Shown here: positions 4,439 to 41,649 of the stretch, piece after piece
How positions within the stretch are numbered: the first letter of the stretch is position 1
How the letters are laid out: every line of letters starts with the position of its first letter
IMG/VR virus record: IMGVR_UViG_3300022223_000004
Location: 6,499 to 70,498 of that record
Strand: one strand, 5' to 3'
Source: a virus
DNA: 64,000 bases
Program-made: the position numbers and the translations under genes
Notes under the pieces: model-generated
What the model saw: only the letters and a program-made list of their open reading frames with translations
Told to the model about the DNA's origin: nothing
The model's database searches: none

Positions 4439-7400
4439 TTATTTAACTCCTGCAACTCCCGGTGATGGTGCTATAACAACAGCGGGAATTTCAATAAACT
4501 TGCCAGTGGCTGTATGGGTAACTTTTATTGTGTACCCTGCTGAATTGCCGCCATAATTTGCCGATAAATATCTTTGGTATATTGATGATATTATAGTTCC
4601 ATCCCAAACTGATCTTCCTGTATTTGATCCTATGTCAACCGTAAAATCTCCAACAACCGCACCATATGAACTAGCAAAAGCATACCAGAATGAACGAATC
4701 TTTAAAGCAATATTTGTGCTTGATGTCTCTGAGCCATAATAAACAACATGGCGAAAAGTAAAAGTAGCAACAACAATCCCCCCTTCTTCAAAACGAATAG
4801 TGGATTCATTCCACAATTGTGTTGAATAGGTATAGGTCGCCAAATTGTCATATGTATAAATCATATAGCCGGTTCTTTTCGGCCCGTAATTTGTGCCATC
4901 GTACTCAAATTGTATTTGTGGTGTTTGTACTGGTTGCAACGAAGATTTCTCAACCGATATTCCCGCTGAAATATAAGTTGCATCAAGGGAACTTTGTAAT
5001 CTACCGACTGAGCTTAAAGCGGTTGGAACTCGACCATCTGTTAATTCGGTTGGCCTGTTTGCAAGATACGTTGACCAATTGGCACCATACCCTGCTTGGT
5101 AGCTTGAGCCATTGTGACCGTAAAAAAATCTGTTTGTGCTATGGATCCATAAATCACCTGTATCGCCTGCTGGAGTTGTTGATTGTACAAAAATATTATT
5201 ATTGGTAGCTGAGGTTTCAATTCCAGAAAGCTTTGTATTTGCAGTGCCATCAAGATTCGCCAAACTTTTATTAATAACCTGAGTTATTAAGTCTGCCGAA
5301 TTCTCTGTTGCTAATGCACCTGCATCAGAAATATTAGCCATTACATTATTGGTAACACTGGATGCCAAATCGGCCCCATTGCCTAGTTGATAACTGGAAC
5401 CGTTATGACCATAAATATATTTATTGGTACTGTGGATCCAAATATCACCAGTGTCACCTGCTGGTGTACCAGTTTGGACAAAAATATTATTATTGGTTGC
5501 TGAGGTTTCAATTCCAGAAAGCTTTGTATTTGCAGTGGCGTCCACATTGGCTAAACTTTTATTTATAACTTCACCCGTGGATAAGTCCACATTATCTTTT
5601 GTCGCCAATGCACCTGAATCTGAAATATTAACCATTTGATTATTGGAAACGGAAGTTGCCAAATCAGCACCATTACCTATTTGGAAAGAGCTTCCATTAT
5701 GCCCATAAATATATTTAGTGGTGCTGTGAATCCATATGTCGCCATTATCACCTGCTGGTGTACCAGTTTGTACGAATACCTGGTTTTTTGTTGCTCCTAC
5801 ACTTGCAGGGTTAGGGGTAATTGGTGTCCAATTGGTCCAATCCCCCACCTCTCCATTTGCGTAGTATGATCGTATCCTATAATGTCGTGGTGCTGAGTCT
5901 GACACATCATCTATAACCGCGGGTTCTACAAAGTTACGGGTTACTTCTGAAGCTCCTGGGGACCCAGCAGAATCCGCGGCCCTTTCATATTCATAATGGG
6001 AAACGGCTGTTTGCCCCTCATCCTCTATCTCAAGTAGAATTCCATCTGGGATGGTTTTAAATGGCTTTAAAACTGGCTTTCTAGGTGTACTAGTTGGCAC
6101 AGTTTCATCCGCTCCTGGAGTATTAAGGGATTCGCTACCTGTATCATATGTACCCGAATTAGCTTGTTCCATTACCAAAACAGGGAATCCATTTTCAAAG
6201 GAATATTTTTTAATTCTATAAGTTCCAGAGATATCAGGAATATCAACGGTCACCATATCCCACCATCCAACTTGCAAGGCTTTCATGTTACATGGTATAG
6301 AAAGTATCTTTTGTTCCCTGGACCTCCTCTTTTCTATATTAGCGCGATACTGAGCACGGTATTCATTATCAATACCAGGACAATCTATCTCTATTATGAT
6401 TTGATTGCCGCCGTCCGCTGTTTCGTATGAACTGTCAGTCATCAATTTACAGACTTCCTCTCTGTAATCCCTTGATGCACTTACATAGTTTACCTTCACA
6501 GCATTATAAAGATCGCTAATCTGTTTTTTAGTTGTATAGGAAATAGGACCAGCTACCCAGGATTCATCTATAGTTATAGTTGGTGCGGTATATTCTCCAG
6601 CATGGCATTTCCATGTTCCTGCTATAACGTCAAAATTAATGACTCCTGCCATACAAGCTTCCAGCATATCTATATTATCTTCCGGCTCAGAAGAGGCGAA
6701 TGCTAAATTGGCTGTATATTTTTTAATGGTAGTGGTATCCGGAGCAAGGAAAGTGGTATCACATACATTGGCAGCGGCTGCAAAGGTATCCCAACCGTCC
6801 TGTGTAAAATCCTCATCTGGATCGGAACCGAGTCCACCATCTAATTCATCCATCACTATATAAGTAGCGGCTATCACCGCTGGGTTGTCGGACCATTCCC
6901 ATGTTGAGGGATCATTGGCCCTGTGCAACCCAGAGCCTCCCCTTGTGGTATCTTTCCGAACGTCATAGCATTTATTCCCTTTAATGAGCCTATTAAGCTC
7001 AGATGGTTTTCCATTTGGAAAAGCTTTCTGGAATTTCTTCTCATTATCTGCACCCATAGGTCTTATTAATTTCAATACCGTATAGGGAATGCCTTTTAGT
7101 TTATGGTTAACAGTCCAACCATCATATGCAGCCTCCAGCCATCCATTATAGGGCTGGGTATCTAATCCCTGATAGGATTGCAAGTATACCATAGGATTCG
7201 AGGAAGCATCTTTCCATTTGAATAGGTCAACGTAATGCACTATCCCAAGGTCCAGCACTATGTCCGCATCAGGTATTCTTTCACCATCAATCCAGAGGTC
7301 CTCTAGACCCTCAATTCCCCCTGTGTGTGTGATTCCATGAGCAATCCCCACATATAATTCTTCCTTTGATCCATCACCATCAACGTCCCTAGTTTTCACA

Positions 7401-8677: not shown

Positions 8678-9718
8678 TCAAGCTCCGGGTGCCAATAAAT
8701 CTTCTTCAAGGTAAATACTAAAACTGGATACAACTGGCTTGCTTATGCTTTCATCATTAGAGCCAGTACCCTCTGTAGGGAATATTCCATAGAATCTGGG
8801 CCTGTGTATCATAACAGGCGCACTATCTACTGGTGACGTATAAATCGGAATATCCAAATAAGCATACCCTATGCCTCCGGAATCACTGTCCAGGTTTGCT
8901 GTTAATTTTTTCAGTTCCATTTTAGGATTCTTCTTTGATCCTGTTACATCCGTTAAGATAGTAATGTACTCATTGGCTTTTAATATGCCATCCCTTGACG
9001 CTGGCAAATCCTTTAATTTTAAAACACTGCCAGTTTGGGAGGCCCCATCTACTCTGGCACATCTGGCAAAGGAAGCTCCAGAATAGAATAGATGATTACC
9101 CGCGGCGGCTACTCTCGATGCTAGGCGAATGGTGTGATTCCTAGTGACTGAAGGAATCGCCACCCCAACTAAAAAGCCTGGAGCATCTACGTCCAAAAGG
9201 AATAGATCAACCGCACCAGTGTCATCCCTCACCTGCATTCTAGCCAAGGCATGAGTCCCTGGTTCCGCAACCACTATAAACAAATAAGGAACTCCCGCGG
9301 TCAGGCTTATGGTCTGGGAGGCAATCGCGGCATTGATTGCATCCGAATTTTGTACTTTAATTTTCCTAAGGGAATCTTTTAAACTTGCATTAGTAGCATT
9401 CCATGATGCCGTGCCATCAAAAAAGGGATTGGCTAATAGTTCAACAAATTCCGCATTACTCCCAGAAGGACTCCTGGCTGCATTAAACATTTCACCAATA
9501 GTGTAGGAGTCTCCAGCACTAGCCGTATCCAGCCATCTGCTTATCTCTTGCCGATTATCATCTTGAGTCAGTTCCCAGGTTAAAGCTATTCCTCTTTTGT
9601 CATTAGGGATCCTCTCCCTCTGGACAAAATTATAGGGGCCCTTCACTTCTCTATCTACCCTGACTAAGGATGCCCGGATAGAGGAGCTTAATACACTGGG
9701 TAATGGGTAAAATTTCAT
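8678..9718 (-). CDS. distal tail protein with inserted carbohydrate-binding-like module
   Basis: Follows the tape measure gene; C-terminal 'RVDGASQTGSVL...LKANEYITI' Dit-like motif; central 'ELLANPFFDGTASW' beta-sandwich-like insert. Confidence 0.65.
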   Translation of the reverse strand: MKFYPLPSVLSSSIRASLVRVDREVKGPYNFVQRERIPNDKRGIALTWELTQDDNRQEISRWLDTASAGDSYTIGEMFNAARSPSGSNAEFVELLANPFFDGTASWNATNASLKDSLRKIKVQNSDAINAAIASQTISLTAGVPYLFIVVAEPGTHALARMQVRDDTGAVDLFLLDVDAPGFLVGVAIPSVTRNHTIRLASRVAAAGNHLFYSGASFARCARVDGASQTGSVLKLKDLPASRDGILKANEYITILTDVTGSKKNPKMELKKLTANLDSDSGGIGYAYLDIPIYTSPVDSAPVMIHRPRFYGIFPTEGTGSNDESISKPVVSSFSIYLEEDLLAPGA

Positions 9719-27450: not shown

Positions 27451-28959
27451 TTATTTAATGATTATGGTTCTCCCAGCGCCCCTACCATGCACAGGTACCA
27501 ATGTGGCATCTGGTACCCTTATGGATTCTTGTGCAACCTTTTCTGGAATGTCTTTGTAATAATGTTTCGCATTCTCCTTAATCCATTCTACCTGTTCCCT
27601 ATAGGTCAATTTTACATTGCCCTTAAACTGATTACGGATCCTTAAAGCAATCCCAGCAGACACGTCCCTAGACAGTGAAGGGCCTTTTTTGTTTCCATCA
27701 GAAAACATAATTCCTATCTCGGCAAAGGTTAAAAGGAATTTTATCTCCTCTATATTCATAGCCAGAACCACATTGGCCTCTGGAGATAAAAACTGAAGTC
27801 CTTTTTTACAATGAGGGCAGGGGAGGACTGTATCTAATAGGTGCCCACCTCTGAGTTCCAGAGGCACAATGTCTCCCAAAATAAAATAACCTCCACAGCG
27901 TATGCACCAGACTTCCTTTTCCAGAGTTTCTTCACTCCAAGTTCCTGTCGTCACTATTTCCAGCACATGGGGTGGCGTCCATTCCGTATAGGGGATTTCT
28001 TGTAATGTTGATGGGTCATCAAAGGTATCCACAAAGAGGTTTTCATCCTTGATCGGAGCAAAGTTGTCCATTTGAAATTTTAGGAGATCAGTTGTGGTTT
28101 CCAGAAGGTGGTACAGAAAGCTCCTACCCCTGGTATCGCTCCAGTCTATATCTTTTCCCTCTATCAGGGCTTTAGAGGTCTGGGATAATACTTGGAGCAA
28201 TTGATTAGGAGCATCGGGCAATTTAGAGGAAGAATGCAACCAATCATGTAAAAAACCTATAAGGTCTTTTGCATTAGTGTTTGTGTCATCCTGATAATGC
28301 TGATAACGGGTGACCCTAATTGGAGGCAGGCGATGGCTTTTAGGTAAGTCGGTTGTTTTACCTGCTAAGTATTGCTCCAACCTATCTTTTAAATACATTT
28401 CAGACCCTTCAGGAAAACCTAAAGGCAAATATTTCACAAAAGTCTCCACCCTTTTAAGGGCCATTGTCCGTAAGTAATTAAAAGAGACCCTTCTGTTCCT
28501 GAGGTCCATATCCATTTCCTCAATCATCCGATTAAGGAATCCCTCCAGTGATTTTATTTGCCAAGGCTCACAATCTTGTAAAGGATCTGGAGTGGAATCA
28601 ATCTCTGGCAGGACTTCACTCCCTTTTGGTATTTTCAATTGCTCCCGCATACTGGTTAAAATCATAGCGGAATCATGGGTAAGGTCTGCTATATGTGATC
28701 TGAAGTCCTCTAAGGGTTTGTCTCCACAGAGGCACTCAGCATTCAAATCTACCAAATTGGTTATAAGGGTATCCACTGTATCAGGTAGGTCACTAATGCC
28801 TAAGGGTGTATTGGGGCTATCTGCTTTCATACGCCAAACATTTTCAAATAGGTCCACAATCTGGGCCAGTTTCTCTGGCTCTGCTAGGTAGACTCTGATA
28901 ATGTCTTGGAAAATGTACAGTAATCTGGACAATAGGGAATGGGTTGTTTCCTGGTTCAT
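27451..28959 (-). CDS. hypothetical 502-aa protein with C-terminal zinc ribbon
   Basis: Long helical ORF with CIRC...CPHC; lies between TerS and TerL. Confidence 0.75.
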   Translation of the reverse strand: MNQETTHSLLSRLLYIFQDIIRVYLAEPEKLAQIVDLFENVWRMKADSPNTPLGISDLPDTVDTLITNLVDLNAECLCGDKPLEDFRSHIADLTHDSAMILTSMREQLKIPKGSEVLPEIDSTPDPLQDCEPWQIKSLEGFLNRMIEEMDMDLRNRRVSFNYLRTMALKRVETFVKYLPLGFPEGSEMYLKDRLEQYLAGKTTDLPKSHRLPPIRVTRYQHYQDDTNTNAKDLIGFLHDWLHSSSKLPDAPNQLLQVLSQTSKALIEGKDIDWSDTRGRSFLYHLLETTTDLLKFQMDNFAPIKDENLFVDTFDDPSTLQEIPYTEWTPPHVLEIVTTGTWSEETLEKEVWCIRCGGYFILGDIVPLELRGGHLLDTVLPCPHCKKGLQFLSPEANVVLAMNIEEIKFLLTFAEIGIMFSDGNKKGPSLSRDVSAGIALRIRNQFKGNVKLTYREQVEWIKENAKHYYKDIPEKVAQESIRVPDATLVPVHGRGAGRTIIIK

Positions 28960-28984: not shown

Positions 28985-29626
28985 TTATAAGAATGCCTCA
29001 TCTGGATCATACGCATCTTCCGTAGTCAATCCTACGTCGGTTGCCTTGGCCCAAGTATTCTTATCCCGTCTTTCAAGTATAGTTATATCCCGTACCCAGG
29101 TAGGAACAAACTTATCTGGAGCCAAACTTCTGGTGATTATTTTCTTTCTGAATAACGCTAAGGCCCTGTTTATCGCCAAATAATAATATGCATATTTTTT
29201 ATGAGATTTGGACGCCTTCTCTTCCCAGTCATCCTCATAAGATGCCACAAAATCCTTTCCTGCCTTCATCCAGCGGTAATGGGTATTTTCAAATATGCCC
29301 AATAGGAAACAGGCGTCATGGACTGGAATAAAATGGCTCAGATAAAAACACATTACTCGGCATAACTCTGGGGAACATTCTGCGGGGGACCCTACGGGAA
29401 GGAAAAAGTTTTCTGCCTCTTCCAAAGTGGCTGTACGCATATACTCTCGGAATAGGGTATCTTCTAATGGTTTAGCACCTTTCGGCTTTTTGCTGATTTT
29501 TATCCGTTTCCCCTGTGGAGTCCTTTTTTGGTAGGTTTTTAATTTAATTCTTTTCGGTTCTGGAATACCTTTCCCTTCTTTCTTTTTCTGGGACTTCGGT
29601 TTTCTTTTAATTTTGATCATAGGCAT
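28985..29626 (-). CDS. probable terminase small subunit
   Basis: Basic N-terminus, HTH-like 'HDACFLLGIFENTHYRWM', C-terminal 'ILERRD...W'; AAGGAGGTG RBS; first gene of the packaging operon. Confidence 0.65.
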   Translation of the reverse strand: MPMIKIKRKPKSQKKKEGKGIPEPKRIKLKTYQKRTPQGKRIKISKKPKGAKPLEDTLFREYMRTATLEEAENFFLPVGSPAECSPELCRVMCFYLSHFIPVHDACFLLGIFENTHYRWMKAGKDFVASYEDDWEEKASKSHKKYAYYYLAINRALALFRKKIITRSLAPDKFVPTWVRDITILERRDKNTWAKATDVGLTTEDAYDPDEAFL

Positions 29627-29758
29627 CAGAAACAGCACCTCCTTTTGGAGGAAACTAACAAAGTCCACGTTGGAGTCGAATTTTTCTGGAATATATTATA
29701 TTTAATTGGCATCCACATTCCTATTATAAAAGGCAAAGGTTTATTTTGATCAGTAAAT

Positions 29759-29983
29759 GAAGAAAGGGAGGAAGCCGGACTGATTGAAAGCCCAAGGGAA
29801 ACTTCCTCCCCTTTCTTCTGGTGATAAGACCTCTGGGTATCAGGCGTTTTAGGTCTTATCACCTACCCCCCAAATAATAGCCAGGAAACCATTATTTGGG
29901 TTCTCTCGAAAAGGTAAAGCGATTTGGGAAACCTTACCTTTTCTATACCACTCGAATAGGCTCGGTGTACCTATTCTAAGTGG
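29759..29983 (-). ncRNA. array of five tandem stem-loops (putative structured RNA)
   Basis: Inverted repeats at 29759-29818, 29820-29863, 29869-29900, 29908-29943 and 29948-29983; extra G-U pairs form on the minus strand. Confidence 0.6.
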
Positions 29984-30026
29984 CAGACCCTATCGTTAAT
30001 TGAGGTTCTTTTGTGTTTGAAAGGAT

Positions 30027-30058
30027 TTACCCTCTCCGTTTCATAGATCACCTCCTTT
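30027..30058 (-). promoter_or_regulatory. 13-nt perfect Shine-Dalgarno followed by mini-ORF MKRRG*
   Basis: AAAGGAGGTGATC-T-ATG AAA CGG AGA GGG TAA; the + strand GATCACCTCCTTT equals the 16S rRNA 3' tail. Confidence 0.65.
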
Positions 30059-30087
30059 TTGCCTATTTAATTAAATAAATTCAGCAC

Positions 30088-30513
30088 CTAAGTATATATC
30101 TCCTTTTCTGGCTTAATTTCCAAAATTATCCTTTTCTTTTTAGTCGCATACCTCATGGTAGCCCAGGTTCCTGACCTTTTCATTTCCTTCATGGTATTAG
30201 GAACTGCTATCAATGCTTCCGTTTGGTTCACTATTTCCTTATTCCTTTCTAGGAAATGCCTGGGTGGTTCTGAAACATCATAAGGAGCATAGGCCCTAAA
30301 TTCAGTATTAATAGGAGGGTGCTGGTGTATTCTGAATCCTAAATGTTTTGCAATAGCCGCGGCATCTTCATCTGCCCCTATACAATCCCCATGGTGGAAT
30401 ACCCTAAATCCCATACCCCATAATTCCCTTAAAGTTTGCTTTAACAGAGTTAATTGCCTTGCAGTCATTCCTTTTCTGGATCCTGTAAATCCTACGTGCC
30501 TGTCTTGGAACAT
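30088..30513 (-). CDS. SLOG-superfamily (YspA/DprA-like) protein
   Basis: 'VGFTGSR', 'HHGDCIGAD', 'RNKEIV....ALIA', 'SGTWAT.RYA'. Confidence 0.85.
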   Translation of the reverse strand: MFQDRHVGFTGSRKGMTARQLTLLKQTLRELWGMGFRVFHHGDCIGADEDAAAIAKHLGFRIHQHPPINTEFRAYAPYDVSEPPRHFLERNKEIVNQTEALIAVPNTMKEMKRSGTWATMRYATKKKRIILEIKPEKEIYT

Positions 30514-30819
30514 ATCACTCTCCTACTTTCTGCTGGTTTTTTCTTCGTTTATTTAGTTTAGGAAATAAATCAAAAAGGACAATAATGTTCACCAAAGCCA
30601 CATATGCCATCAGTGCTACAAATACTACCAAATTCTCAATCACCTTCTTCCTCTCCTGTTTTTATCAATATTCCGTCCATCCATGCCTCTATAGATTCCT
30701 CTATATCGGTTGGTTTTTCTAGGCAATGAGATATTCCAATAGCCTTTTGCATATCCTTTTTCAGGGACTCTGGTATAACTTCCTTGTTTTCTTTCTCGTC
30801 CTCTTCCATTTCCTTTTCC

Positions 30820-31113
30820 TCACAACTTTTCTATCTGATTCAATTTTTTCTTGGCATACATTACAGGATCCTTCACAGACCCATTGGCTATCCTCTTTAA
30901 TGCTGCCGTGGCAAGTCCTAAAGACTTAAATGGCCTTTCATGCCTTTTCCTTTTTTCTAGGTACTTGGCTTCCTGCTCCTCTTGTCGTTTGGCAACCGTT
31001 TCTGGAGAATGCTGTTTACAGTAACCTCCCATAACAGCCTTTCTGGAACACCGATGCTGGCGATAAGTGCCGTAACCCCATACTAATTGCACACATTGGT
31101 CATTTCTACTCAT
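30820..31113 (-). CDS. small Cys/His zinc-binding protein
   Basis: 'QC...HRCSRKA..GGYCKQH'. Confidence 0.65.
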   Translation of the reverse strand: MSRNDQCVQLVWGYGTYRQHRCSRKAVMGGYCKQHSPETVAKRQEEQEAKYLEKRKRHERPFKSLGLATAALKRIANGSVKDPVMYAKKKLNQIEKL

Positions 31114-31355
31114 ATTAAAGCTCCTAACCATTTTAATATGGCAAAACAATTCTCCCCACTAGGCATTTGTCCTTTCTTCATCCTAGAAATTGTGGATTCG
31201 TTTACCCCCATCTGGACACAGGCATCTTTTATGGTAATCCCATCCACCAGTGCCTTTCTTTTAATATGGGCATATATGTTTTCCAAGTTTTCTTCCTCTG
31301 ACAATGGTGGAAGACTTGGTATTGGTGTGTTATAGTTGTTATCCTGCTTGTTCAT
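31110..31355 (-). CDS. XRE/Cro-like HTH regulator
   Basis: 'ITIKDACVQMGVNESTISRMKKG..PS..N...I..WLG'. Confidence 0.8.
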   Translation of the reverse strand: MNKQDNNYNTPIPSLPPLSEEENLENIYAHIKRKALVDGITIKDACVQMGVNESTISRMKKGQMPSGENCFAILKWLGALI

Positions 31356-31595
31356 CTATCTACCCTCTATTGGGATGGCTGACTCACTTAGCATAGGCCC
31401 AGCGGTTATGACTACCGTTGAACGTATCCCCGCCTCAACCATCCTTTTTGACATGCAGTGTATGCACAAGATTCCACCTCCTTCTTCGTTTGGCGCAATC
31501 TTTTCCCAAACTTCATCTGGGACGACGGCTTCAACCCAATCCGGTCTGTTGTAGTTGTACCCGCAATCGTAGCAACTCAATACCATATCTATCAT
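31356..31595 (-). CDS. zinc-finger hypothetical protein
   Basis: CYDC...VPDEVW..I...GILCIHCM..R. Confidence 0.7.
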   Translation of the reverse strand: MIDMVLSCYDCGYNYNRPDWVEAVVPDEVWEKIAPNEEGGGILCIHCMSKRMVEAGIRSTVVITAGPMLSESAIPIEGR

Positions 31596-31607
31596 CCTCC
31601 AGTGCTG

Positions 31608-32039
31608 TTAGCCTGAAAACTGTTCTAAGACGCTATTGCAAAGTCTATTGATCTCTGGATCTTCTCCGTTAAGAGAGTAAACCTCTCTGATAACGTCAAG
31701 TAATTTTCGTATGATTTCCTGTTGGTCAGATATTTCACCTAAATACATCTGTTCTTTAACTTTATGCTCTGTTGGATGCCATGTTGTTGCTGTATCTTTC
31801 AGAAACTCATCCACTTGAATCTCTAAAGACTCCATGTGTTCTACTGCCCGACATTCGTCGAAGTCAGTCTCTGAATCAAACCTTGCTCTCTCCAAGTGTT
31901 CTTGCGCTTCCCTGAATGACCTAAGCAAAGAGACGGCTTTGTCCTCTGCTGGGTGCCATGTGGATATAGGCTCAAAATAACTTGTTCCTTCATCGCTATG
32001 GACTACTCTTGATAAACCGCAAGGGCATTTATCTGTCAT
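31608..32039 (-). CDS. hypothetical protein (143 aa)
   Basis: AGGAGG RBS; internal 'TWHP.E.K' duplicated. Confidence 0.65.
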   Translation of the reverse strand: MTDKCPCGLSRVVHSDEGTSYFEPISTWHPAEDKAVSLLRSFREAQEHLERARFDSETDFDECRAVEHMESLEIQVDEFLKDTATTWHPTEHKVKEQMYLGEISDQQEIIRKLLDVIREVYSLNGEDPEINRLCNSVLEQFSG

Positions 32040-32383
32040 TGGGTATCCTCCTGAGCTAATTTGTTAAGCACATATGACCCACCATGTTTACCACAAAAAT
32101 ATTTTCCATCTATTTTAAAAGATGCCGCTAGATCACAAGTTTCCTTGCCTTTGGGATTCCCTGGTCTGCCTCTGCCATGCCAAAATTTTCTAGTAGCAAG
32201 GGATAGCATGGCTCCACACTTAGGAAAAGACAATCTATCCGACTTTATCCTGATTACTTTTGTTGGAAGCTCCGACCCCTCTTGGCTTTCTTCCTCACCG
32301 TACAAAACCTTTTTCATTGTCTCATTACGGTCATGTATGTAATCCATCCAATCTTCTTCATCTTCTTCAAAGTCATTATCCAT
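32036..32383 (-). CDS. hypothetical protein with C-terminal C/H motif
   Basis: AGGAGG RBS; 'C...C...IDGKYFCGKH'. Confidence 0.65.
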   Translation of the reverse strand: MDNDFEEDEEDWMDYIHDRNETMKKVLYGEEESQEGSELPTKVIRIKSDRLSFPKCGAMLSLATRKFWHGRGRPGNPKGKETCDLAASFKIDGKYFCGKHGGSYVLNKLAQEDTQ

Positions 32384-32417
32384 CTCTTCCTCCTTTTGGA
32401 TTAAAATCCCTCATTGT

Positions 32418-32616
32418 TGGCGGCTGGGGCAGGATTCGAACCTGCATGGAACGGCTGGCACTTTTGATAGGGGAGCATAACCGCATTCCACTCCTATCTC
32501 CTGTCAATTCAGGTCTACCGATGACTAATGCCTTATAAGGGTATGTCGTCTTAACCCCCTTCACCACTGGCCGTATGCTCTACACCAGTTGCGTCTTCCA
32601 ATTCCGCCACCCAGCC
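32418..32616 (-). ncRNA. 199-nt tRNA-like RNA with a greatly enlarged central region
   Basis: Acceptor stem GGCTGGG/CCCAGCC + G + CCA; Leu/Ser-type D arm TGGCGGAATTGGAAGACGC; T arm GCAGG-TTCGAAT-CCTGC; about 120 extra nt between them. Confidence 0.8.
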
Positions 32617-32623
32617 ATAAAAC

Positions 32624-33070
32624 CTAAAAAGCTTTGCCTCCTTCGGATTGCCTTTCTTCCCTCTTATGGTCACTCCGTACTTTATTATATGCCATTTTTT
32701 CTACAATGGTCCCGGATACGTCAAAACCCTTAGCACCCATATAATCCAAAAGGCGGATCAGTAGGTCCAAACATTCTACCTCTTCCGCACTTCTGTGCGG
32801 CAGATGATCATCTGGTAGTCCTTTCCTACTTCCTTCTAAAATCTCGGAAGCTTCGGAATGTATCAGGGCCAGTTTAGTGGCAAAGAAATAGGGTAAAGCT
32901 TCAGGACAAACTTTCTCAAAAAGGTCATAATCATCCCACCACCCTGCCTCTCTATTTATTCTGTGGACCTTTTTAGCCAAATCGGTTAAATTTTCAAATC
33001 CTGAGTATTGAGGATCCGAGTGGGCAATTTTAATTAATTCACTTAAATGCATACCGATATTGGATGCCAT
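32624..33070 (-). CDS. MazG-like NTP pyrophosphohydrolase
   Basis: 'KLALIHSEASEILEG.RK', 'EEVE..D.LIRLLD', 'EKMAYN..R...GGKAF'. Confidence 0.85.
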   Translation of the reverse strand: MASNIGMHLSELIKIAHSDPQYSGFENLTDLAKKVHRINREAGWWDDYDLFEKVCPEALPYFFATKLALIHSEASEILEGSRKGLPDDHLPHRSAEEVECLDLLIRLLDYMGAKGFDVSGTIVEKMAYNKVRSDHKREERQSEGGKAF

Positions 33071-33100
33071 TTTATTTCTCCTATTAGCGTTTATCTTCTA

Positions 33101-33116
33101 CTGATATCTATATCAG
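33101..33116. promoter_or_regulatory. LexA (SOS) box 2
   Basis: a-CTG ATATCTATAT CAG-t fits CTG-N10-CAG with an AT-rich spacer. Confidence 0.6.
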
Positions 33117-33161
33117 TGAGTCTTGGGTATTCACAGTATTTTGACTTAATTTTATGGAAAA

Positions 33162-33177
33162 CTGTATATACATACAG
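33162..33177. promoter_or_regulatory. LexA (SOS) box 1, overlapping a candidate -35 element
   Basis: a-CTGT ATATACAT ACAG-t is one base from the gamma/beta-proteobacterial consensus; minus strand reads CTGTAT-17 nt-TAAAAT. Confidence 0.8.
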
Positions 33178-33328
33178 TCTTTTTAACGCATCCTACTTCG
33201 ATTTGAGCGGATATCATGCATATGCGTTATGTTATACGCTGATACTGTAAAAACCCGCTAGGATCTTAAATCCTAGTGACAGGATTGATTTCAAGTAAAT
33301 GCAGACAGTCAGTGTCCTTATAACTGTA

Positions 33329-33964
33329 TCAGGTCGATTTTTTCAGTATTTTATTAAAAATACCCGACAGAAAATCTCTAGCGGTTTTGTATGACAACCT
33401 GATGGGCTTCCGTTCCGTATCAATATAATATGACCATAGGATCCGGTTTCGGGCCATTGTCCGTAATGGAAGAAAAAGATTTCCAGAAGAGACAATGGAA
33501 AAATCTTTATAGTCTTTTATAAAAAACCAAGATCCTTTTATTGTCTTAGTAGGACCAGTTATGAATAAAGTCCAAGCAGGTCCCTCTAATACTGCTATCC
33601 TGTGATAAGTGCTATGCTCTCTTTTGATTATTCCACTTTCTTTGGAAATACCCCTACTACACAACATGGTGGCATTGATGGTGCCACCATCCTCTCCCGA
33701 AATGTGGAAGAAAGCTTCGCTTGCGGGTGAACAATACTCCTCCCACAATACCCCTTTTAAACATATTGACCAAGAATCCCAGGGATGGTTATGCATCACC
33801 CCCTCCCTATCATCCCCAGTAAACCGGTGGAGATAGATATTTGGAAGCCACGGACTTTTGTTCCGGGGAAATAAATGCCATCTGGTAAGGTACCCAGGTA
33901 TCCAGAATTTGGGAATGGATAAATAAATAATAAACAGCACTAATAAAATATAAAATAAAGTCAT
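33329..33964 (-). CDS. cupin-like protein with N-terminal TM helix
   Basis: 'IYLHRF..DD...HNHPW....I.LKG...EE', 'HRI', 'WTLFITGP'. Confidence 0.7.
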   Translation of the reverse strand: MTLFYILLVLFIIYLSIPKFWIPGYLTRWHLFPRNKSPWLPNIYLHRFTGDDREGVMHNHPWDSWSICLKGVLWEEYCSPASEAFFHISGEDGGTINATMLCSRGISKESGIIKREHSTYHRIAVLEGPAWTLFITGPTKTIKGSWFFIKDYKDFSIVSSGNLFLPLRTMARNRILWSYYIDTERKPIRLSYKTARDFLSGIFNKILKKST

Positions 33965-34009
33965 TTTTATTTCTCCTTGAAATATTCCATTTGAAAGAAT
34001 CATGGCCCT

Positions 34010-34405
34010 TCAAGACCATTTTAGCGTGTCTGCAATCCAAACTTTAAATTTGGTCCAACTAGATTGCTGAGGTTTTGGGACCGGGAATTCTGGTGGTATG
34101 AGTGGTCCATAAGAAATGGAAAACTTCTCCATGGATCTGTCTGCCTCCTCAATGGATGGATACCTACTGGAAATTGCCTGTGAAGCCCTTGCCGTGGCTT
34201 TGGTTGCCTCCTCAGTGGAAGTAATCAGTTTATGGAATGCTTTCAAAGGTGCCTCTTCATTAATAGGGAGTTCGGCTGCCTTCTCTAAAATAATTTCCCT
34301 CCTAAAAGGATTTTCCTTGAAAGCCTGTCCACATCCCTTTTTTGCAAGTTTGCGTCTCCTGTGTCGAATGGCTTTCTTTGATGGCTTTTTTAAAAGTTTT
34401 TTCAT
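34010..34405 (-). CDS. hypothetical basic protein
   Basis: AGGAGG RBS; TAATG coupling to the upstream gene. Confidence 0.6.
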   Translation of the reverse strand: MKKLLKKPSKKAIRHRRRKLAKKGCGQAFKENPFRREIILEKAAELPINEEAPLKAFHKLITSTEEATKATARASQAISSRYPSIEEADRSMEKFSISYGPLIPPEFPVPKPQQSSWTKFKVWIADTLKWS

Positions 34406-34653
34406 TATAGTTTCCTCCTTCTCTCCTCTTTAACAAAAGAGGATATTAATAAAACCAATTTATTAAAGATTAAACTTTCCTTACTCATAATCCTATAATC
34501 TGATTGGAGCACCTCTCTAGTGGTATACCTAAGTCCACACCCAGTACATTCTCTCCTCCTCCGAATAGTCCCTTCCTTTTTAGAAAGTCTGGTTTCCAAA
34601 ACAGATGAAAGGGTGTGTTTACAGTATGGACATTGCATGTCCTTTCTCCTCAA
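34405..34653 (-). CDS. NrdR-like zinc-ribbon protein lacking the ATP cone
   Basis: 'MQCPYC....SSVLETR......IRRRRECTGCGLRYTTRE' matches the NrdR N-terminus; only 82 aa. Confidence 0.8.
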   Translation of the reverse strand: MRRKDMQCPYCKHTLSSVLETRLSKKEGTIRRRRECTGCGLRYTTREVLQSDYRIMSKESLIFNKLVLLISSFVKEERRRKL

Positions 34654-35171
34654 TCAAATAAAGTTTTTGGACGGGATAGCTCTTTCACATACTCAAACAT
34701 CTCAATATCCCCCTGCCTTACGGTATTCATTTTTTTGTAATTCATTTTTTTCCTTAAAGAGATGATCGGGACATTATCTGTCCTCAGTTGGGTAATTATC
34801 CTAAGACACCCTAACTCCTTTGCGAGCTTTTCAGCCCTTTTTGTCAGAGTTGCCGCAATCCCTTGTCTTTTATAATCATCGGACACGGCAGTGTACTTTA
34901 TTTGGAAATCCCCTTTAGTGATTAAAGAAGGTGGCTTGCCCTTTACCTTTCTGTGGTTCCACACAAGGAATCCCATCACTTCCCCAGTCTCAGAATATTC
35001 AATAATTACCCGATTGTCCTCAATGGCATTGGCTAAAAAAATTGTCTGGACATGCCCCAAAAAAAGCTTAGTAGAAGGCTGTTGGAGTATCTTCATAAGT
35101 ATTTTAGCCAAGTCCCTTGCAGACATTTTAATGGGACGTTTTTTGAGTTTCATTGTTTTTATTTCCTCCAT
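34650..35171 (-). CDS. GNAT acetyltransferase
   Basis: 'AVSDDYKRQGIAATL', 'GC.RI....R.DN'. Confidence 0.85.
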   Translation of the reverse strand: MEEIKTMKLKKRPIKMSARDLAKILMKILQQPSTKLFLGHVQTIFLANAIEDNRVIIEYSETGEVMGFLVWNHRKVKGKPPSLITKGDFQIKYTAVSDDYKRQGIAATLTKRAEKLAKELGCLRIITQLRTDNVPIISLRKKMNYKKMNTVRQGDIEMFEYVKELSRPKTLFD

Positions 35172-35880
35172 AGATCAAATTATCGAAATCCACAAAAATG
35201 GAAAGTAATTTTTTAAATGACCTCTCCAAAAAAGATATTGACTGGGTTTCAATACCATCATTGGAGATAGTCAACGTCAAAACCCTTTGACCTTCCTCCG
35301 GAGAGGATCCAACCAAATGGGAAGTGATGGTAGAAGTGAAGTCCTCTTCCTTATAATTAAGAAACTTTAAACTATTTCTCTCCAAAGCGGCGGACATCAT
35401 ATTAAAGAAATCCTCTCTGTTTAATTCCTCTCCACCGGAGAGGTATTCCTCAAAGTAAGAGAACAATAGACCCCCTTTAGCATGATAATCCAAATCACTA
35501 AAATGGAGATAATCGGTATCTCTGGGGAAATGGAGAACGAACATACTTGGAAGGTCCTCTTCCTCTAAAGGAAACTCCTTTGCCAATTCTTGTATTTTAC
35601 CTTCCATGAGTGGACTACTATAAGAGGCCTTAGATACAGTCCTATGCAAAGTAAGAATTCCAGAACAGTCTATACCACCCAAGAAATAGCATCTCATGTG
35701 CTCTAGGAGCATTCCACAACTTGCCACAAATAGGTAATATTTTCTGGAACAGAAAGGGCATTTATATATTAATAATTCAGGATCCTTTATTGGCTCCAAA
35801 GTCTCAGACGAATCGGGAATACTGATAAATCTATCCCCATTATCAACTCTGTACCCTCTAAAAGTGGTTCTGGTAATCAT
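35128..35880 (-). CDS. hypothetical protein with C2H2-like motif
   Basis: 'YKCPFCSR...LLEHM'. Confidence 0.65.
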   Translation of the reverse strand: MITRTTFRGYRVDNGDRFISIPDSSETLEPIKDPELLIYKCPFCSRKYYLFVASCGMLLEHMRCYFLGGIDCSGILTLHRTVSKASYSSPLMEGKIQELAKEFPLEEEDLPSMFVLHFPRDTDYLHFSDLDYHAKGGLLFSYFEEYLSGGEELNREDFFNMMSAALERNSLKFLNYKEEDFTSTITSHLVGSSPEEGQRVLTLTISNDGIETQSISFLERSFKKLLSIFVDFDNLIYGGNKNNETQKTSH

Positions 35881-36146
35881 CTTAATCTCCTTCTTTTTCT
35901 CAATATAGGTTTTTCCGTTAATGGTCTTTTTGCCAAAAGGCTATCACTGCTATCACTCTTTAAAAAATCAACAATAAAAGGACGTGGTTGGTAGGTAGGC
36001 TCTATAATAACTTTCCTTTCCTCTACCACTCGGGTATAGATAGACTGCATCAATTGGTATAGGTCTATTAAATATTCAGCCACATCGGAAGGAACGTCAT
36101 AGACTTTACCTCCTATGTCTACCTTTTTCATTTCTTTTTTATCCAT
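35877..36146 (-). CDS. hypothetical protein
   Basis: Packed ORF with ATGA overlap. Confidence 0.6.
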   Translation of the reverse strand: MDKKEMKKVDIGGKVYDVPSDVAEYLIDLYQLMQSIYTRVVEERKVIIEPTYQPRPFIVDFLKSDSSDSLLAKRPLTEKPILRKRRRLR

Positions 36147-39540: not shown

Positions 39541-40714
39541 CAAGAATCCCTGAATGTTTCCCATAAGACTCCAATAAAAGTTTGTATAAATCCTCCTCTA
39601 TTATTGTGTCTATTACTAAATGAACCCTGACAGACTTCCCATTGTTTACCGCTTGATGTGGTTTATGGATTTCTAAGTAATATAATTTTCCTGCCTCCAT
39701 GTGGTGTTTTTGTTTTCCTCCTTCCATATCCCATGTGGTAAACCAAACCTTGTTATTAGTGACCAAAGGGATATGCAATCGAGCAATGCCCTTTTTAGCG
39801 AATTTAACCTCCTTGCCCATCTTATCCGTGTGTCTACCTAGCTCTCCTCCCCCAGGAGTTAAAAACATAAATCGAATCCTATCCTTTTTCCCTGGTATGC
39901 TATTGCATAGCCTTTGCACTAAAGGAAATTTTTTCATCAAAGGGGTGTCTTTGCATTTTGCATCCAATAGATTTTCATTTTCTTTTTTCCATTTTCTAGG
40001 CATAGAGGAGGGCTTTATAATGAATCTTTCATCCCCATATCCTCGCAGACTCAAAGCTGACCAAGAATTTCCTTTATTGTAATTACTCCAATGATTTGCT
40101 CCTTGCAATTCAGAAACCTGTTTAGCCAACTTCCGCGCATCTTTTTTAAAGGAGTCACTAATCGAAATTGGAAAACAATCCAATCTATCTGGATAAAAAG
40201 CCTCAGGCTCATTTAAGTTAAAGATCACATTGGGTCCTGCTTTTACAAAGACTCCTATAACATCTGCAAAGGCCGTCACCTTTGAAGTGGCATGGAAATA
40301 CCCTCTAGTATTTAAAGGAGACAAAAGCTTATGACTATCCTCTCCTAAAGGAAGTTCCAATACCAAAGGGTTTTTCTGTTTAATGATTTCCCTCAAAAGG
40401 TGGATCCTCATTTTACAACTATCCCCTTTCATAGCAAAATAATCCAAACGGGTGTAAGGACCTATGATCTTTGCTACAGGGAATCCTGCAATATTTTGTA
40501 TCAAGGTGGTTCTCCTATTCAAGGAGGATAGTTTGCCGAATGCCACCATTCTTTTATCCTTGTGCATAGTAAAGGATAAAGCAGGATCCATTCCGTTCAA
40601 TTTATGCTTATTCATTTTCCTAAATGGATCTTTTAAAACCCTGCTCTCTTCCTCTCCACATATAGAAAGGATTTTTTTCATATTAGACTTTTTTAGGGGA
40701 ATGATAACAGTCAT
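39533..40714 (-). CDS. 2OG-Fe(II) oxygenase (Asp/Asn beta-hydroxylase-like) with N-terminal GNAT-like domain
   Basis: 'RIRFM.L.PGGGELGRHTD', 'RLHIPLVTN', 'KPHQAVN.G...RVHLVID' give HxD...H...R. Confidence 0.85.
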   Translation of the reverse strand: MTVIIPLKKSNMKKILSICGEEESRVLKDPFRKMNKHKLNGMDPALSFTMHKDKRMVAFGKLSSLNRRTTLIQNIAGFPVAKIIGPYTRLDYFAMKGDSCKMRIHLLREIIKQKNPLVLELPLGEDSHKLLSPLNTRGYFHATSKVTAFADVIGVFVKAGPNVIFNLNEPEAFYPDRLDCFPISISDSFKKDARKLAKQVSELQGANHWSNYNKGNSWSALSLRGYGDERFIIKPSSMPRKWKKENENLLDAKCKDTPLMKKFPLVQRLCNSIPGKKDRIRFMFLTPGGGELGRHTDKMGKEVKFAKKGIARLHIPLVTNNKVWFTTWDMEGGKQKHHMEAGKLYYLEIHKPHQAVNNGKSVRVHLVIDTIIEEDLYKLLLESYGKHSGILDG

Positions 40715-41649
40715 TGGTATTTCCTCTTAGCAGGCATAAAGGAAGTCTCTATCTCTCTCCATTTTTTATGTACCAATTCCCTGGTCCTTTTGTGATTGGC
40801 AGGAGCCTTAACCCCAATTTCCTTTAAAAAATGGGCACAGGCTGTTTCATCATCCATTCCATAGTTAAATAAGATAGGGAATTCACACTGCCTATAAGGC
40901 AGTCCCACTTTATTTTTTTCATTCTTGGCAATTACCTGGATTCCAATATTCCTTTTCTGTTTTTTTATTGTTTGGTTGATTTTCTTCTTTTCGGCAAGCC
41001 AGACAATCTGTGCCGCATAAAAATCTAATGCTTTGCCTCCTGACCTTTTATGCTTTTTCCCAAACATAACTCCAATATTATCCCTGATTTGAGAAATGAT
41101 CAGGAAAAAGACATTATGCCTTTCTAATCTATCCTCTAACCTCCTCAAAGCCTCCCCCACTTTCTTAGCCTTTGTTCCATAAGAACCATCATCAATCTTT
41201 CTTTTTCTTTCACCTTCATCGGAGATGGCATCTAAAGAATCCAAAATATAAACCGTAGGACCTTTGTCTTTTTTTCCTAAACAATTTTCCTCCAGATGGG
41301 AGTAAACTTCCTCTATAGTCCCTAAGGTAGTCAATGTGGCATCTTTAGGAAAACCCAGAGATCGGGCATAAGGGACATCAAAAGTTTCTCCACCACCCAC
41401 AGTATAGAAGATTTTTCCATCAGGAAAAAGTTTTCTGAAATTGGCAGTAAGCTCAATGGCAATCAATGTTTTTCCTGTAGACTTATCTCCTACAAGATTA
41501 GCGAGTCTGCCTAAAGCCCAGCCTCCTCCTAAAATGCAATCCAACAAAGCACATCCCGAAGGAATATAAGTTATATCCACTTCGTCCTCAAAGTAGAAAT
41601 TCTTAGGGGATACTTTCCTAAGACTTCCGGCTAATGCTCTTTTCTTCAT
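40711..41649 (-). CDS. recA: RecA-like recombinase
   Basis: 'SG...LD..LGGG...GR', 'GDKSTGKT', 'ILDS', 'SQIRD.IGVMFG', 'GGKALDFYA', 'KNKV..P'. Confidence 0.92.
   Translation of the reverse strand: MKKRALAGSLRKVSPKNFYFEDEVDITYIPSGCALLDCILGGGWALGRLANLVGDKSTGKTLIAIELTANFRKLFPDGKIFYTVGGGETFDVPYARSLGFPKDATLTTLGTIEEVYSHLEENCLGKKDKGPTVYILDSLDAISDEGERKRKIDDGSYGTKAKKVGEALRRLEDRLERHNVFFLIISQIRDNIGVMFGKKHKRSGGKALDFYAAQIVWLAEKKKINQTIKKQKRNIGIQVIAKNEKNKVGLPYRQCEFPILFNYGMDDETACAHFLKEIGVKAPANHKRTRELVHKKWREIETSFMPAKRKYQ

Follow-up and report, generated by a model that had tools for sequence, protein, structure and literature searches.

LexA operators at phage promoters are already known for temperate elements. 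In temperate phages and prophages under LexA, the SOS repressor of the host is borrowed through an operator at a phage promoter, and LexA controls the lysis-lysogeny switch or an antirepressor; the tum gene of coliphage 186 and the antirepressors of the Gifsy phages are LexA-controlled. Two reports describe LexA control, exerted together with a phage protein, of rstA/rstR of CTXphi (with RstR; PMC3323433) and of promoter P1 of the tectivirus GIL01 (with gp7; PMC4551915). According to PMC3323433 and PMC8565304, CTGT-N8-ACAG is the LexA motif of E. coli and of most beta- and gamma-proteobacteria, while other groups differ and 17 motifs have been reported. In the titles and abstracts listed by literature searches, no report of a LexA-controlled phage MazG gene or of SOS boxes in virulent phages was found. 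The subject of this analysis is such a motif, designated box 1, upstream of a MazG-like gene in an uncultured phage, IMG/VR virus record IMGVR_UViG_3300022223_000004. The stretch analysed, called the window, has 64,000 nucleotides and comprises bases 6499-70498 of this linear record of 70,498 bp, for which CheckV gives a completeness of 76%. The original prediction was that two LexA boxes may place an operon of MazG, tRNA-like, helix-turn-helix (HTH) and SLOG elements under host SOS control. Both sequences were found at the predicted positions in the gap upstream of MazG, which contains the following features.

33071..33328, minus strand: non-coding control region of 258 bp, located in the list of open reading frames (ORFs) between the minus-strand ORF 33329-34003 and the MazG-like ORF 32624-33070
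33161..33178, no strand assigned: box 1, ACTGTATATACATACAGT, near-consensus E. coli-type LexA operator sequence; CTGT-N8-ACAG core at 33162-33177, centre about 99 bp ahead of the MazG-like ATG
33100..33117, no strand assigned: box 2, ACTGATATCTATATCAGT, perfect 8+2+8 palindrome ACTGATAT-CT-ATATCAGT of the form CTGA-N8-TCAG, centre about 38 bp upstream of the start codon
33248..33276, minus strand: intrinsic-terminator-like hairpin CTAGGAT-TTAA-ATCCTAG (hairpin 33276..33258) with the tail CGGGTTTTTA, from the terminator scan
33149..33177, minus strand: candidate sigma-70-type promoter CTGTAT-17-TAAAAT over box 1, from a relaxed scan of the gap; 7 of 12 consensus positions
33078..33082, minus strand: Shine-Dalgarno sequence AGGAG, 7 nt ahead of the MazG-like ATG
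32624..33070, minus strand: MazG-like all-alpha nucleoside triphosphate (NTP) pyrophosphatase of 148 aa, first gene past the boxes; phrog_5658 'pyrophosphatase' at 1.2e-48

Box 1 and the LexA operator type

For scoring, a matrix was derived from operators in the E. coli K-12 regions upstream of recA, lexA (two), sulA, uvrA/ssb, uvrB, umuD, dinB, ruvA, recN (two), uvrD, and polB, using 13 of the 16 CTG-N10-CAG sites detected in these regions. Box 1 reached 23.0 bits on this matrix and surpassed the leave-one-out scores of all 13 E. coli operators (6.7-22.7). With a matrix of all 16 sites, 21.9 bits were obtained. The best sites in 100 Markov-shuffled genomes all scored below box 1, with a mean of 12.3 and a maximum of 19.3. 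Compared to the 20-mer consensus, box 1 shows three mismatches; sites with three or fewer were found in none of 300 Markov shuffles of the 70.5-kb genome, and sites with five or fewer were absent from 75 other loci of phage DNA amounting to 267,790 bases. The pattern CTGT-N8-ACAG occurs three times in the window versus 0.40 expected. The two further sites, at 8802 and 22738, are both within ORFs; the latter scores 13.1 bits, about what the top site of a shuffled genome attains, and the former is outside the eight best sites of the genome scan. Box 1, on the other side, is non-coding, lies 90-108 nt ahead of the ATG, and follows a terminator-like hairpin.

The exact 18-mer of box 1 was then searched in IMG/VR and detected in at least 120 other viral stretches. 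Among 80 loci fetched, 72 distinct contexts of 78 nt were present. The 18-mer of box 2 served as a composition-matched control and yielded a single other copy, which is located within an ORF. To survey the neighbours of box 1, each flank was scanned for the first ORF that had 50 codons or more and began no further than 200 nt away, giving 128 ORFs. Of these, 97 from 62 loci were compared with PHROGs, and 31, mostly from loci with repeated contexts, were dropped. Among the matches listed, an SOS-type gene adjoins the 18-mer in 18 of the 62 loci, DinI-like in 12 and UmuD-like in six. DinI and UmuD are hallmark LexA targets. One of the contexts maps at 84% identity to the gtrA region of an E. coli prophage, while for two loci cultured phages offered no near match. 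Compared with a site of Shewanella piezotolerans, CTGTATGTATGTACAG, the minus-strand core of box 1, CTGTATGTATATACAG, is one base off; in Table 3 of PMC4471891, this Shewanella site is assigned to the upstream region of the gene with the strongest derepression in a lexA mutant.

Other specificities were considered as well. Nine further LexA motif types (Cheo box, alpha direct repeat, Bdellovibrio, Leptospira, Verrucomicrobia, Fibrobacter, cyanobacterial, Xanthomonas, and Magnetococcus), gave no placed match in the genome, and six of the nine gave no match at all. For the PadR-type pattern ATGT-N8-ACAT, too, no placed match was detected in the genome.

Judged by its letters, box 1 is a first-rate operator sequence of the beta/gamma-proteobacterial LexA type. 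It shares with the E. coli SOS boxes, such as the operators of recA, umuDC, sulA, and dinI, the CTGT-N8-ACAG core, an alternating A/T spacer, the score, the non-coding location, and a distance of about 100 nt to the start codon. It differs in belonging to an uncultured phage of atypical composition and in having no demonstrable promoter over it; in addition, a MazG-like gene is not known as a classical SOS gene. That AT-rich palindromes merely resemble an SOS box by chance appears highly improbable. On the LexA matrix, box 2 by itself does not exceed chance, and perfect palindromes are common in this genome, but the match of box 1 was never reached in the shuffled genomes or in the other phage DNA, the pair of boxes was not reproduced in 300 shuffles (see below), and both boxes reside in one of the few truly non-coding stretches of the phage. 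The data on box 1 are far more likely if it is an operator of host LexA than if it arose by chance or convergence, even when a low prior for a beta- or gamma-proteobacterial host is assumed. Because of its score, its non-coding placement, and the use of the same letters ahead of SOS genes in many other phages, the assignment to LexA is favoured, and we give somewhat better than even chances to box 1 being a working operator of the host LexA.

Box 2 and the surrounding gap

Box 2 behaved differently from box 1. Its score was 4.0 bits (6.4 with the matrix of all 16 sites), a value reached by 42 sites per shuffled genome and lower than that of every E. coli operator which we take to be validated. 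Relative to the E. coli SOS box, A/T replaces T/A at the fourth position of both half-sites. By the matrix, box 2 is therefore not supported as a LexA box. The whole-genome matrix scan, which had been proposed as a check along with the idea of two LexA boxes, placed box 1 above all 100 shuffled genomes and box 2 at background, and only box 1 has SOS-gene neighbours elsewhere, the sequence of box 2 being rare in other viruses.

The occurrence of box 2 next to box 1 is nevertheless not random. No ACTG-N10-CAGT site other than the two boxes exists in the genome (null mean 0.59), and a pair no more than 100 bp apart arose in 0 of 300 shuffles. The inner ten bases differ between them at every position. 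Among the matches listed, a second CTG-N10-CAG within 120 nt of the box 1 18-mer was present in none of the 80 other loci. Box 2 is most likely the site of another factor or a hairpin of the 5' leader, or at best a weak auxiliary or cooperative site.

These features could also indicate that both palindromes are operators of a dimeric protein other than LexA which reads ACTG-N10-CAGT, the LexA likeness of box 1 being convergence. Such a binder could be the HTH protein of the same run, acting by autoregulation, an NrdR-type zinc-ribbon protein encoded 1.3 kb upstream, or a host factor. The phage encodes these candidates in the window, and an HTH_17-like ORF is encoded in the contig outside the window:

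31110..31355, minus strand: small HTH protein of 81 aa, candidate alternative binder of the palindromes; PF01381 HTH_3 at 8.1e-5 and 23.0 bits, exactly at the cut-off
34405..34653, minus strand: NrdR-type zinc-ribbon-only protein of 82 aa, candidate DNA binder; PF22811 Zn_ribbon_NrdR at 2.3e-16

The shared outer ACTG/CAGT with identical 10-bp spacing, the need of box 2 for an explanation other than LexA, the paired layout, which is not the usual pattern of LexA in phages, and a composition arguing against a typical gammaproteobacterial host are all in line with this possibility. Two sites of one protein would, however, hardly be expected to differ at every inner position, and no further copy of either half-site pattern was found in other gaps of the phage. 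Convergence to a sequence which outscores every E. coli operator and whose 18-mer precedes DinI-like and UmuD-like genes is improbable, and among the genes of the contig none for a LexA-type DNA-binding domain was detected. The NrdR box is a 16-bp palindrome with CAC...GTG ends and an A/T core; in a crude test, CAC-(A/T)10-GTG was absent from the whole genome. Taken together, control of both boxes by a protein other than LexA is regarded as rather unlikely. The HTH protein also matches phrog_725 'CII-like regulator' at 4.9e-5. The 82-aa protein has no ATP cone, being limited to the zinc-ribbon DNA-binding domain of NrdR, and could interfere with the control of ribonucleotide reductase in the host.

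Half-sites are concentrated in this region. The gap contains six ACTGT/ACAGT pentamers, the highest number in any 258-bp window of the genome, for which the mean is 0.31 per 258 bp. Isolated half-sites are located at 33244, 33305, and 33323, in the gap and in the last codons of the upstream gene, and a fourth one is found between the boxes at 33133. None of the four is paired at LexA spacing.

The palindromes could also act at the RNA level, with box 1, which has an A-tract on one side and a U-tract on the other, serving as an additional weak terminator or attenuator, and box 2 as a hairpin in the 5' leader affecting stability, processing, or translation of the MazG message. In RNA, box 1 can form a 10-pair hairpin, AAAAGACUGUAU-GUAU-AUACAGUUUU, with -8.7 kcal/mol (z -4.4), which is followed by UUUU and was matched by 0 of 200 shuffles. 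For the box 2 hairpin, with -6.9 kcal/mol (z -2.25), equally good folding was seen in 7 of 200 shuffles. Both hairpins are kept when the whole leader is folded, and the genome is enriched in palindromes: 19 perfect 8+2+8 palindromes are present, box 2 included, versus 7.1 +/- 2.2 expected. Yet folding is common to all palindromes and thus adds nothing particular to these two. For terminators, their AU-rich stems are weak, neither hairpin appeared in the output of the terminator scan, and no Rfam match was obtained. In addition, the LexA consensus letters in loop and stem of box 1 and the recurrence of its 18-mer ahead of SOS genes are left without explanation. A role of the palindromes solely as RNA is accordingly considered improbable.

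The terminator-like hairpin upstream of box 1, which had been noticed before together with a T-tract, was recovered by the terminator scan at 33276..33258. It comprises eight pairs, three of them G-C, with a loop of three and the tail CGGGTTTTTA, and folds in RNA with -12 kcal/mol (z -2.7). A G+C-containing hairpin with a T-run, as required for an intrinsic terminator, is thus predicted at this position, and it may close the upstream replication/recombination transcription unit. Since hairpin and T-run pass the scan, a new transcription unit is expected to begin in the gap. The hexamer TAAAAT is the sole -10-like sequence there, and box 1 covers the -35 region and spacer belonging to it.

The MazG-like gene and the gene order of the phage

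The product of the first gene past the boxes resembles the all-alpha NTP pyrophosphatases, a group including MazG, DCTPP1/RS21-C6, iMazG, and phage MazZ. These enzymes carry the acidic metal-binding motif E-x-x-E ... E-x-x-D, and the residues E73, E76, E79, E99, and D102 of the 148-aa protein are invariant in 13 aligned sequences. An AlphaFold model is helical with a pLDDT of 82.9. The best matching folds are the dCTPase DCTPP1/RS21-C6 and the integron protein iMazG, with probabilities of 0.94-0.99 and TM values by target of 0.56-0.74, the E-values being weak (0.17-0.9). In contrast to the described enzymes, no Pfam family is matched even at E<=1, only the PHROG family labelled 'pyrophosphatase', and a PDB sequence search yielded only MazZ (7ODY) with an E-value of 0.64. 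The best matches in cultured phages, at about 45-58% identity, are from phages of Klebsiella, Stenotrophomonas, Pseudomonas, and similar hosts; among viral and metagenome contigs the best identity is 60%.

Every gene in the 64-kb window is located on the minus strand. In the order of transcription, the remaining modules and genes are the following.

Minus strand, first in transcription order: replication/recombination module with UvrD-like helicase, ParB-like protein, 5'-3' exonuclease, DnaB, SNF2 helicase, primase, clamp, PolA, clamp loader, and SSB-like protein
Minus strand, continuation of this module: RecA, RuvC-like, SbcD/SbcC-like, GNAT, and NrdR-type zinc-ribbon proteins
40711..41649, minus strand: phage RecA; PF00154 at 2.9e-32, 41% identity to RecA of SSP002-like Vibrio phages
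33329..34003, minus strand: last gene of the upstream unit, 224 aa; phrog_4786 'cysteine dioxygenase' at 1.9e-27
Minus strand, after the 258-bp gap: accessory run with the MazG-like pyrophosphatase first, four small ORFs, HTH, DUF5763, and DprA/SLOG-like protein
30088..30513, minus strand: DprA/SLOG-like protein of 141 aa, final gene ahead of the packaging genes; PF02481 at 9.3e-5, below the cut-off, and phrog_289 at 1e-10
Minus strand, last in transcription order: late genes for small terminase, a 502-aa ORF, large terminase, portal, capsid, and siphovirus tail

AGGAG-type ribosome-binding sites, strong ones, precede most genes. A Pfam search with the 224-aa ORF 33329-34003 gave no match. The label 'SLOG' is based on the DprA match below the cut-off and on a PHROG labelled as GTP-binding domain. 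A promoter-like site was detected by the promoter scan at 29918..29891. The 502-aa ORF at 27451-28959 on the minus strand is inserted between the genes for small and large terminase, and no match to it was found in PHROG, in cultured phages by tblastn, or in IMG/VR.

The tRNA-like member of the proposed operon could not be confirmed: ARAGORN detected no tRNA or tmRNA gene in the window, and no Rfam match at E<=1 was obtained for 29000-34500. Just downstream of the MazG-like gene, at 32446-32592, there is a variable spot, where one low-depth contig of a second sediment run has 89 other bases in place of these 145, and the element described earlier as tRNA-like may have been seen there. In total, three sediment-metagenome runs contain the stretch or part of it, with no RNA run among them. 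In contigs from these runs, 33116-33216 is covered only in the probable source run.

That the phage possesses its own RecA was borne out by the Pfam match, and the reported lack of an integrase or CI-like repressor also stood. No integrase, resolvase, rve transposase, S24 peptidase, or LexA DNA-binding domain was detected in the 70.5-kb contig, which is 76% complete. Unlike the temperate phages under LexA control, this phage shows no repressor or antirepressor in this sequence either, and the first gene after box 1, predicted to specify a nucleotide pyrophosphatase, stands between the modules for replication and packaging. Contig bases 2099-2189, which lie outside the window, hold 4.0 copies of a 22-bp unit, and, likewise outside it, three copies of GCTGAGGAAGA(A/T)A(A/T)CAGTA, 120 and 180 bp apart, are found at about 5070-5390 of the contig. 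Both are probably repeats within a coding region.

Relatives, host and proposed control

Several observations weigh against a working host-LexA operator in this phage. The promoter which had been suggested over box 1, CTGTAT-17-TAAAAT, is present at 33177..33149, but it is not convincing, with two of six matching positions in the -35 and five of six in the -10 hexamer. It fails the standard promoter scan, which in 29500-34200 returned four sites, none of them in the gap, versus 10.5 expected from shuffles; neither the standard nor the relaxed scan revealed a consensus-grade sigma-70 promoter overlapping box 1. Which of the E. coli sites entering the matrix count as validated is our own assumption. 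Resemblance to a LexA box alone can mislead: according to PMC5963079, gel shifts for V. cholerae showed no binding of LexA to sequences 'related to the LexA box' located near nrdA and at eight further loci; those sequences are weaker than box 1.

The relatives of the phage contribute points on both sides. In favour of the LexA reading, the nearest cultured ones all infect Vibrio; they are phages of the genus Mardecavirus (SSP002-like), with identities of 60% for capsid, 41% for RecA, 33% for PolA, and 32% for portal. Phage SSP002 has the same gene order, RecA, hypothetical, RuvC-like, SbcD-like, SbcC-like, hypothetical, gap, 'MazG-like pyrophosphatase', small terminase, but no LexA-like site anywhere in its genome. 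Its MazG-like protein of 394 aa shows no significant pairwise similarity to the 148-aa protein (E 3.2). In five relatives from IMG/VR, CTGT-N8-ACAG is missing in four, and the fifth has only a GC-rich one. Near homologues of the pyrophosphatase gene, a LexA-like box was detected in none of eight cultured phages and none of 15 uncultured loci. Searches with the pyrophosphatase and the 502-aa ORF revealed no close relatives in which box 1 could be seen to be conserved, and megablast of 30000-36000 against cultured phages as well as a search for the tail fibre in genome contigs yielded nothing. With a capsid profile, the capsid family was found at 35-56% identity in assemblies labelled Acidobacteriota, Desulfovibrionaceae, Alphaproteobacteria, Gemmatimonadaceae, and others. 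As this family is spread over assemblies of many phyla, kinship does not fix the class of the host. One contig of a Marinacidobacterales metagenome-assembled genome (MAG) carries six separate loci of the capsid family, four at 55% and two at 47% identity to the query, which suggests a multi-copy prophage-like or transposable element.

The proposal of a beta- or gamma-proteobacterial host rests on box 1 itself, and the composition of the phage is unlike that of Gammaproteobacteria. For the whole window, rho* values of 0.47 for CpG, 1.46 for GG/CC, and 0.71 for AC/GT were determined. AGG and AGA make up 42% and 33% of the Arg codons, ATA accounts for 38% of the Ile codons, NCG codons have a share of 5-11% in their families, and purines constitute 56% of the coding strand. 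Codon usage of SSP002, in contrast, is ordinary for Vibrio (Arg codons AGG 4%, CGT 43%, CGT+CGC 71%). In the 80 other viral loci carrying the box 1 sequence, the medians are 1.04 for CpG and 0.11 for AGG, which is ordinary for proteobacteria, and none among the matches listed resembles the phage. A host screen covered 401 genomes of the GTDB class anchored on a genome with a LexA 94% identical to that of E. coli. The 20 genomes with the lowest CpG/GpC ratio in A/T context were sampled, and in none of the 18 informative gammaproteobacterial samples of 5-20 kb was AGG above 0.20 or the dinucleotide pattern of the phage detected. Nor did the composition find a match among the other loci of the analysis.

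Strong AGGAG ribosome-binding sites argue against a Bacteroidota host. Thermophily, considered in view of purine loading and AGR codons, was rejected: from an IVYWREL fraction of 0.384, a temperature of about 25 degrees C is predicted. Nothing on the host could be learnt from the protein atlas or from a WCGWWCGW-type pattern, the latter being too noisy. During the screen, a MAG labelled Pseudomonas marincola was encountered whose lexA operator is of the alphaproteobacterial type GAAC-N7-GAAC, as in six class-mates, and whose LexA is nearly identical to that of Sneathiella; label or binning of this MAG looks wrong.

The conflict between box 1 and composition may have different reasons. The host may belong to an unsampled beta- or gamma-proteobacterial lineage, the composition may be the phage's own, with CpG avoidance alone pushing Arg codons to AGR, or box 1 may be read by something other than a LexA of the gamma type. 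Box 1 could also be a genuine LexA-type sequence left as an idle relic from an ancestor or donor infecting a beta- or gamma-proteobacterium, which the present host does not read. The composition, unlike that of all other sampled carriers of box 1 and of the sampled Gammaproteobacteria, is compatible with this, as are the hosts of the phages matching best with the pyrophosphatase. But an unselected site of 18-20 bp would drift beyond three mismatches, with the flanking gene at about 50% identity to its nearest relatives, and the density of ACTGT/ACAGT in the gap, the highest of the genome, suggests ongoing selection. We attach only a small probability to an idle relic.

If box 1 is a working operator of host LexA, the following control would be conceivable. 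A host LexA with CTGT-N8-ACAG specificity would bind box 1 directly behind the terminator ending the replication/recombination genes. The LexA dimer, sitting over the -35 region and spacer of the candidate promoter, would hinder RNA polymerase and keep the MazG-led run quiet. RecA filaments on single-stranded DNA would trigger self-cleavage of LexA and lift the block, the single-stranded DNA originating from damage of the host or from replication and recombination of the phage itself. In this way, the MazG-led block of genes would probably be tied to DNA damage of the host. Read-through from this run into the packaging genes is possible, because no terminator-like site was found by a simple scan between the genes for the MazG-like protein and the small terminase. 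A more far-reaching version would see LexA as a checkpoint between the replication/recombination module and everything downstream, including packaging and structural genes by read-through, in a phage without visible lysogeny genes. Cleavage would be triggered by single-stranded intermediates, perhaps loaded with phage RecA, so that a replication-coupled late timer would result, to which box 2 would provide a second, phage-encoded input. This version is speculative and has a low probability.

Should LexA bind box 1, an uncultured and apparently non-temperate sediment phage would sense, or be timed by, the DNA-damage signal of its host. LexA control would then be spent on an enzyme of the nucleotide pool and not on a lysis-lysogeny switch, and the range of functions for which mobile elements are known to employ LexA would become broader. 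Box 1 would also offer what sequence rarely provides for an orphan phage, a hint at its host, and this hint conflicts with the composition of the phage.

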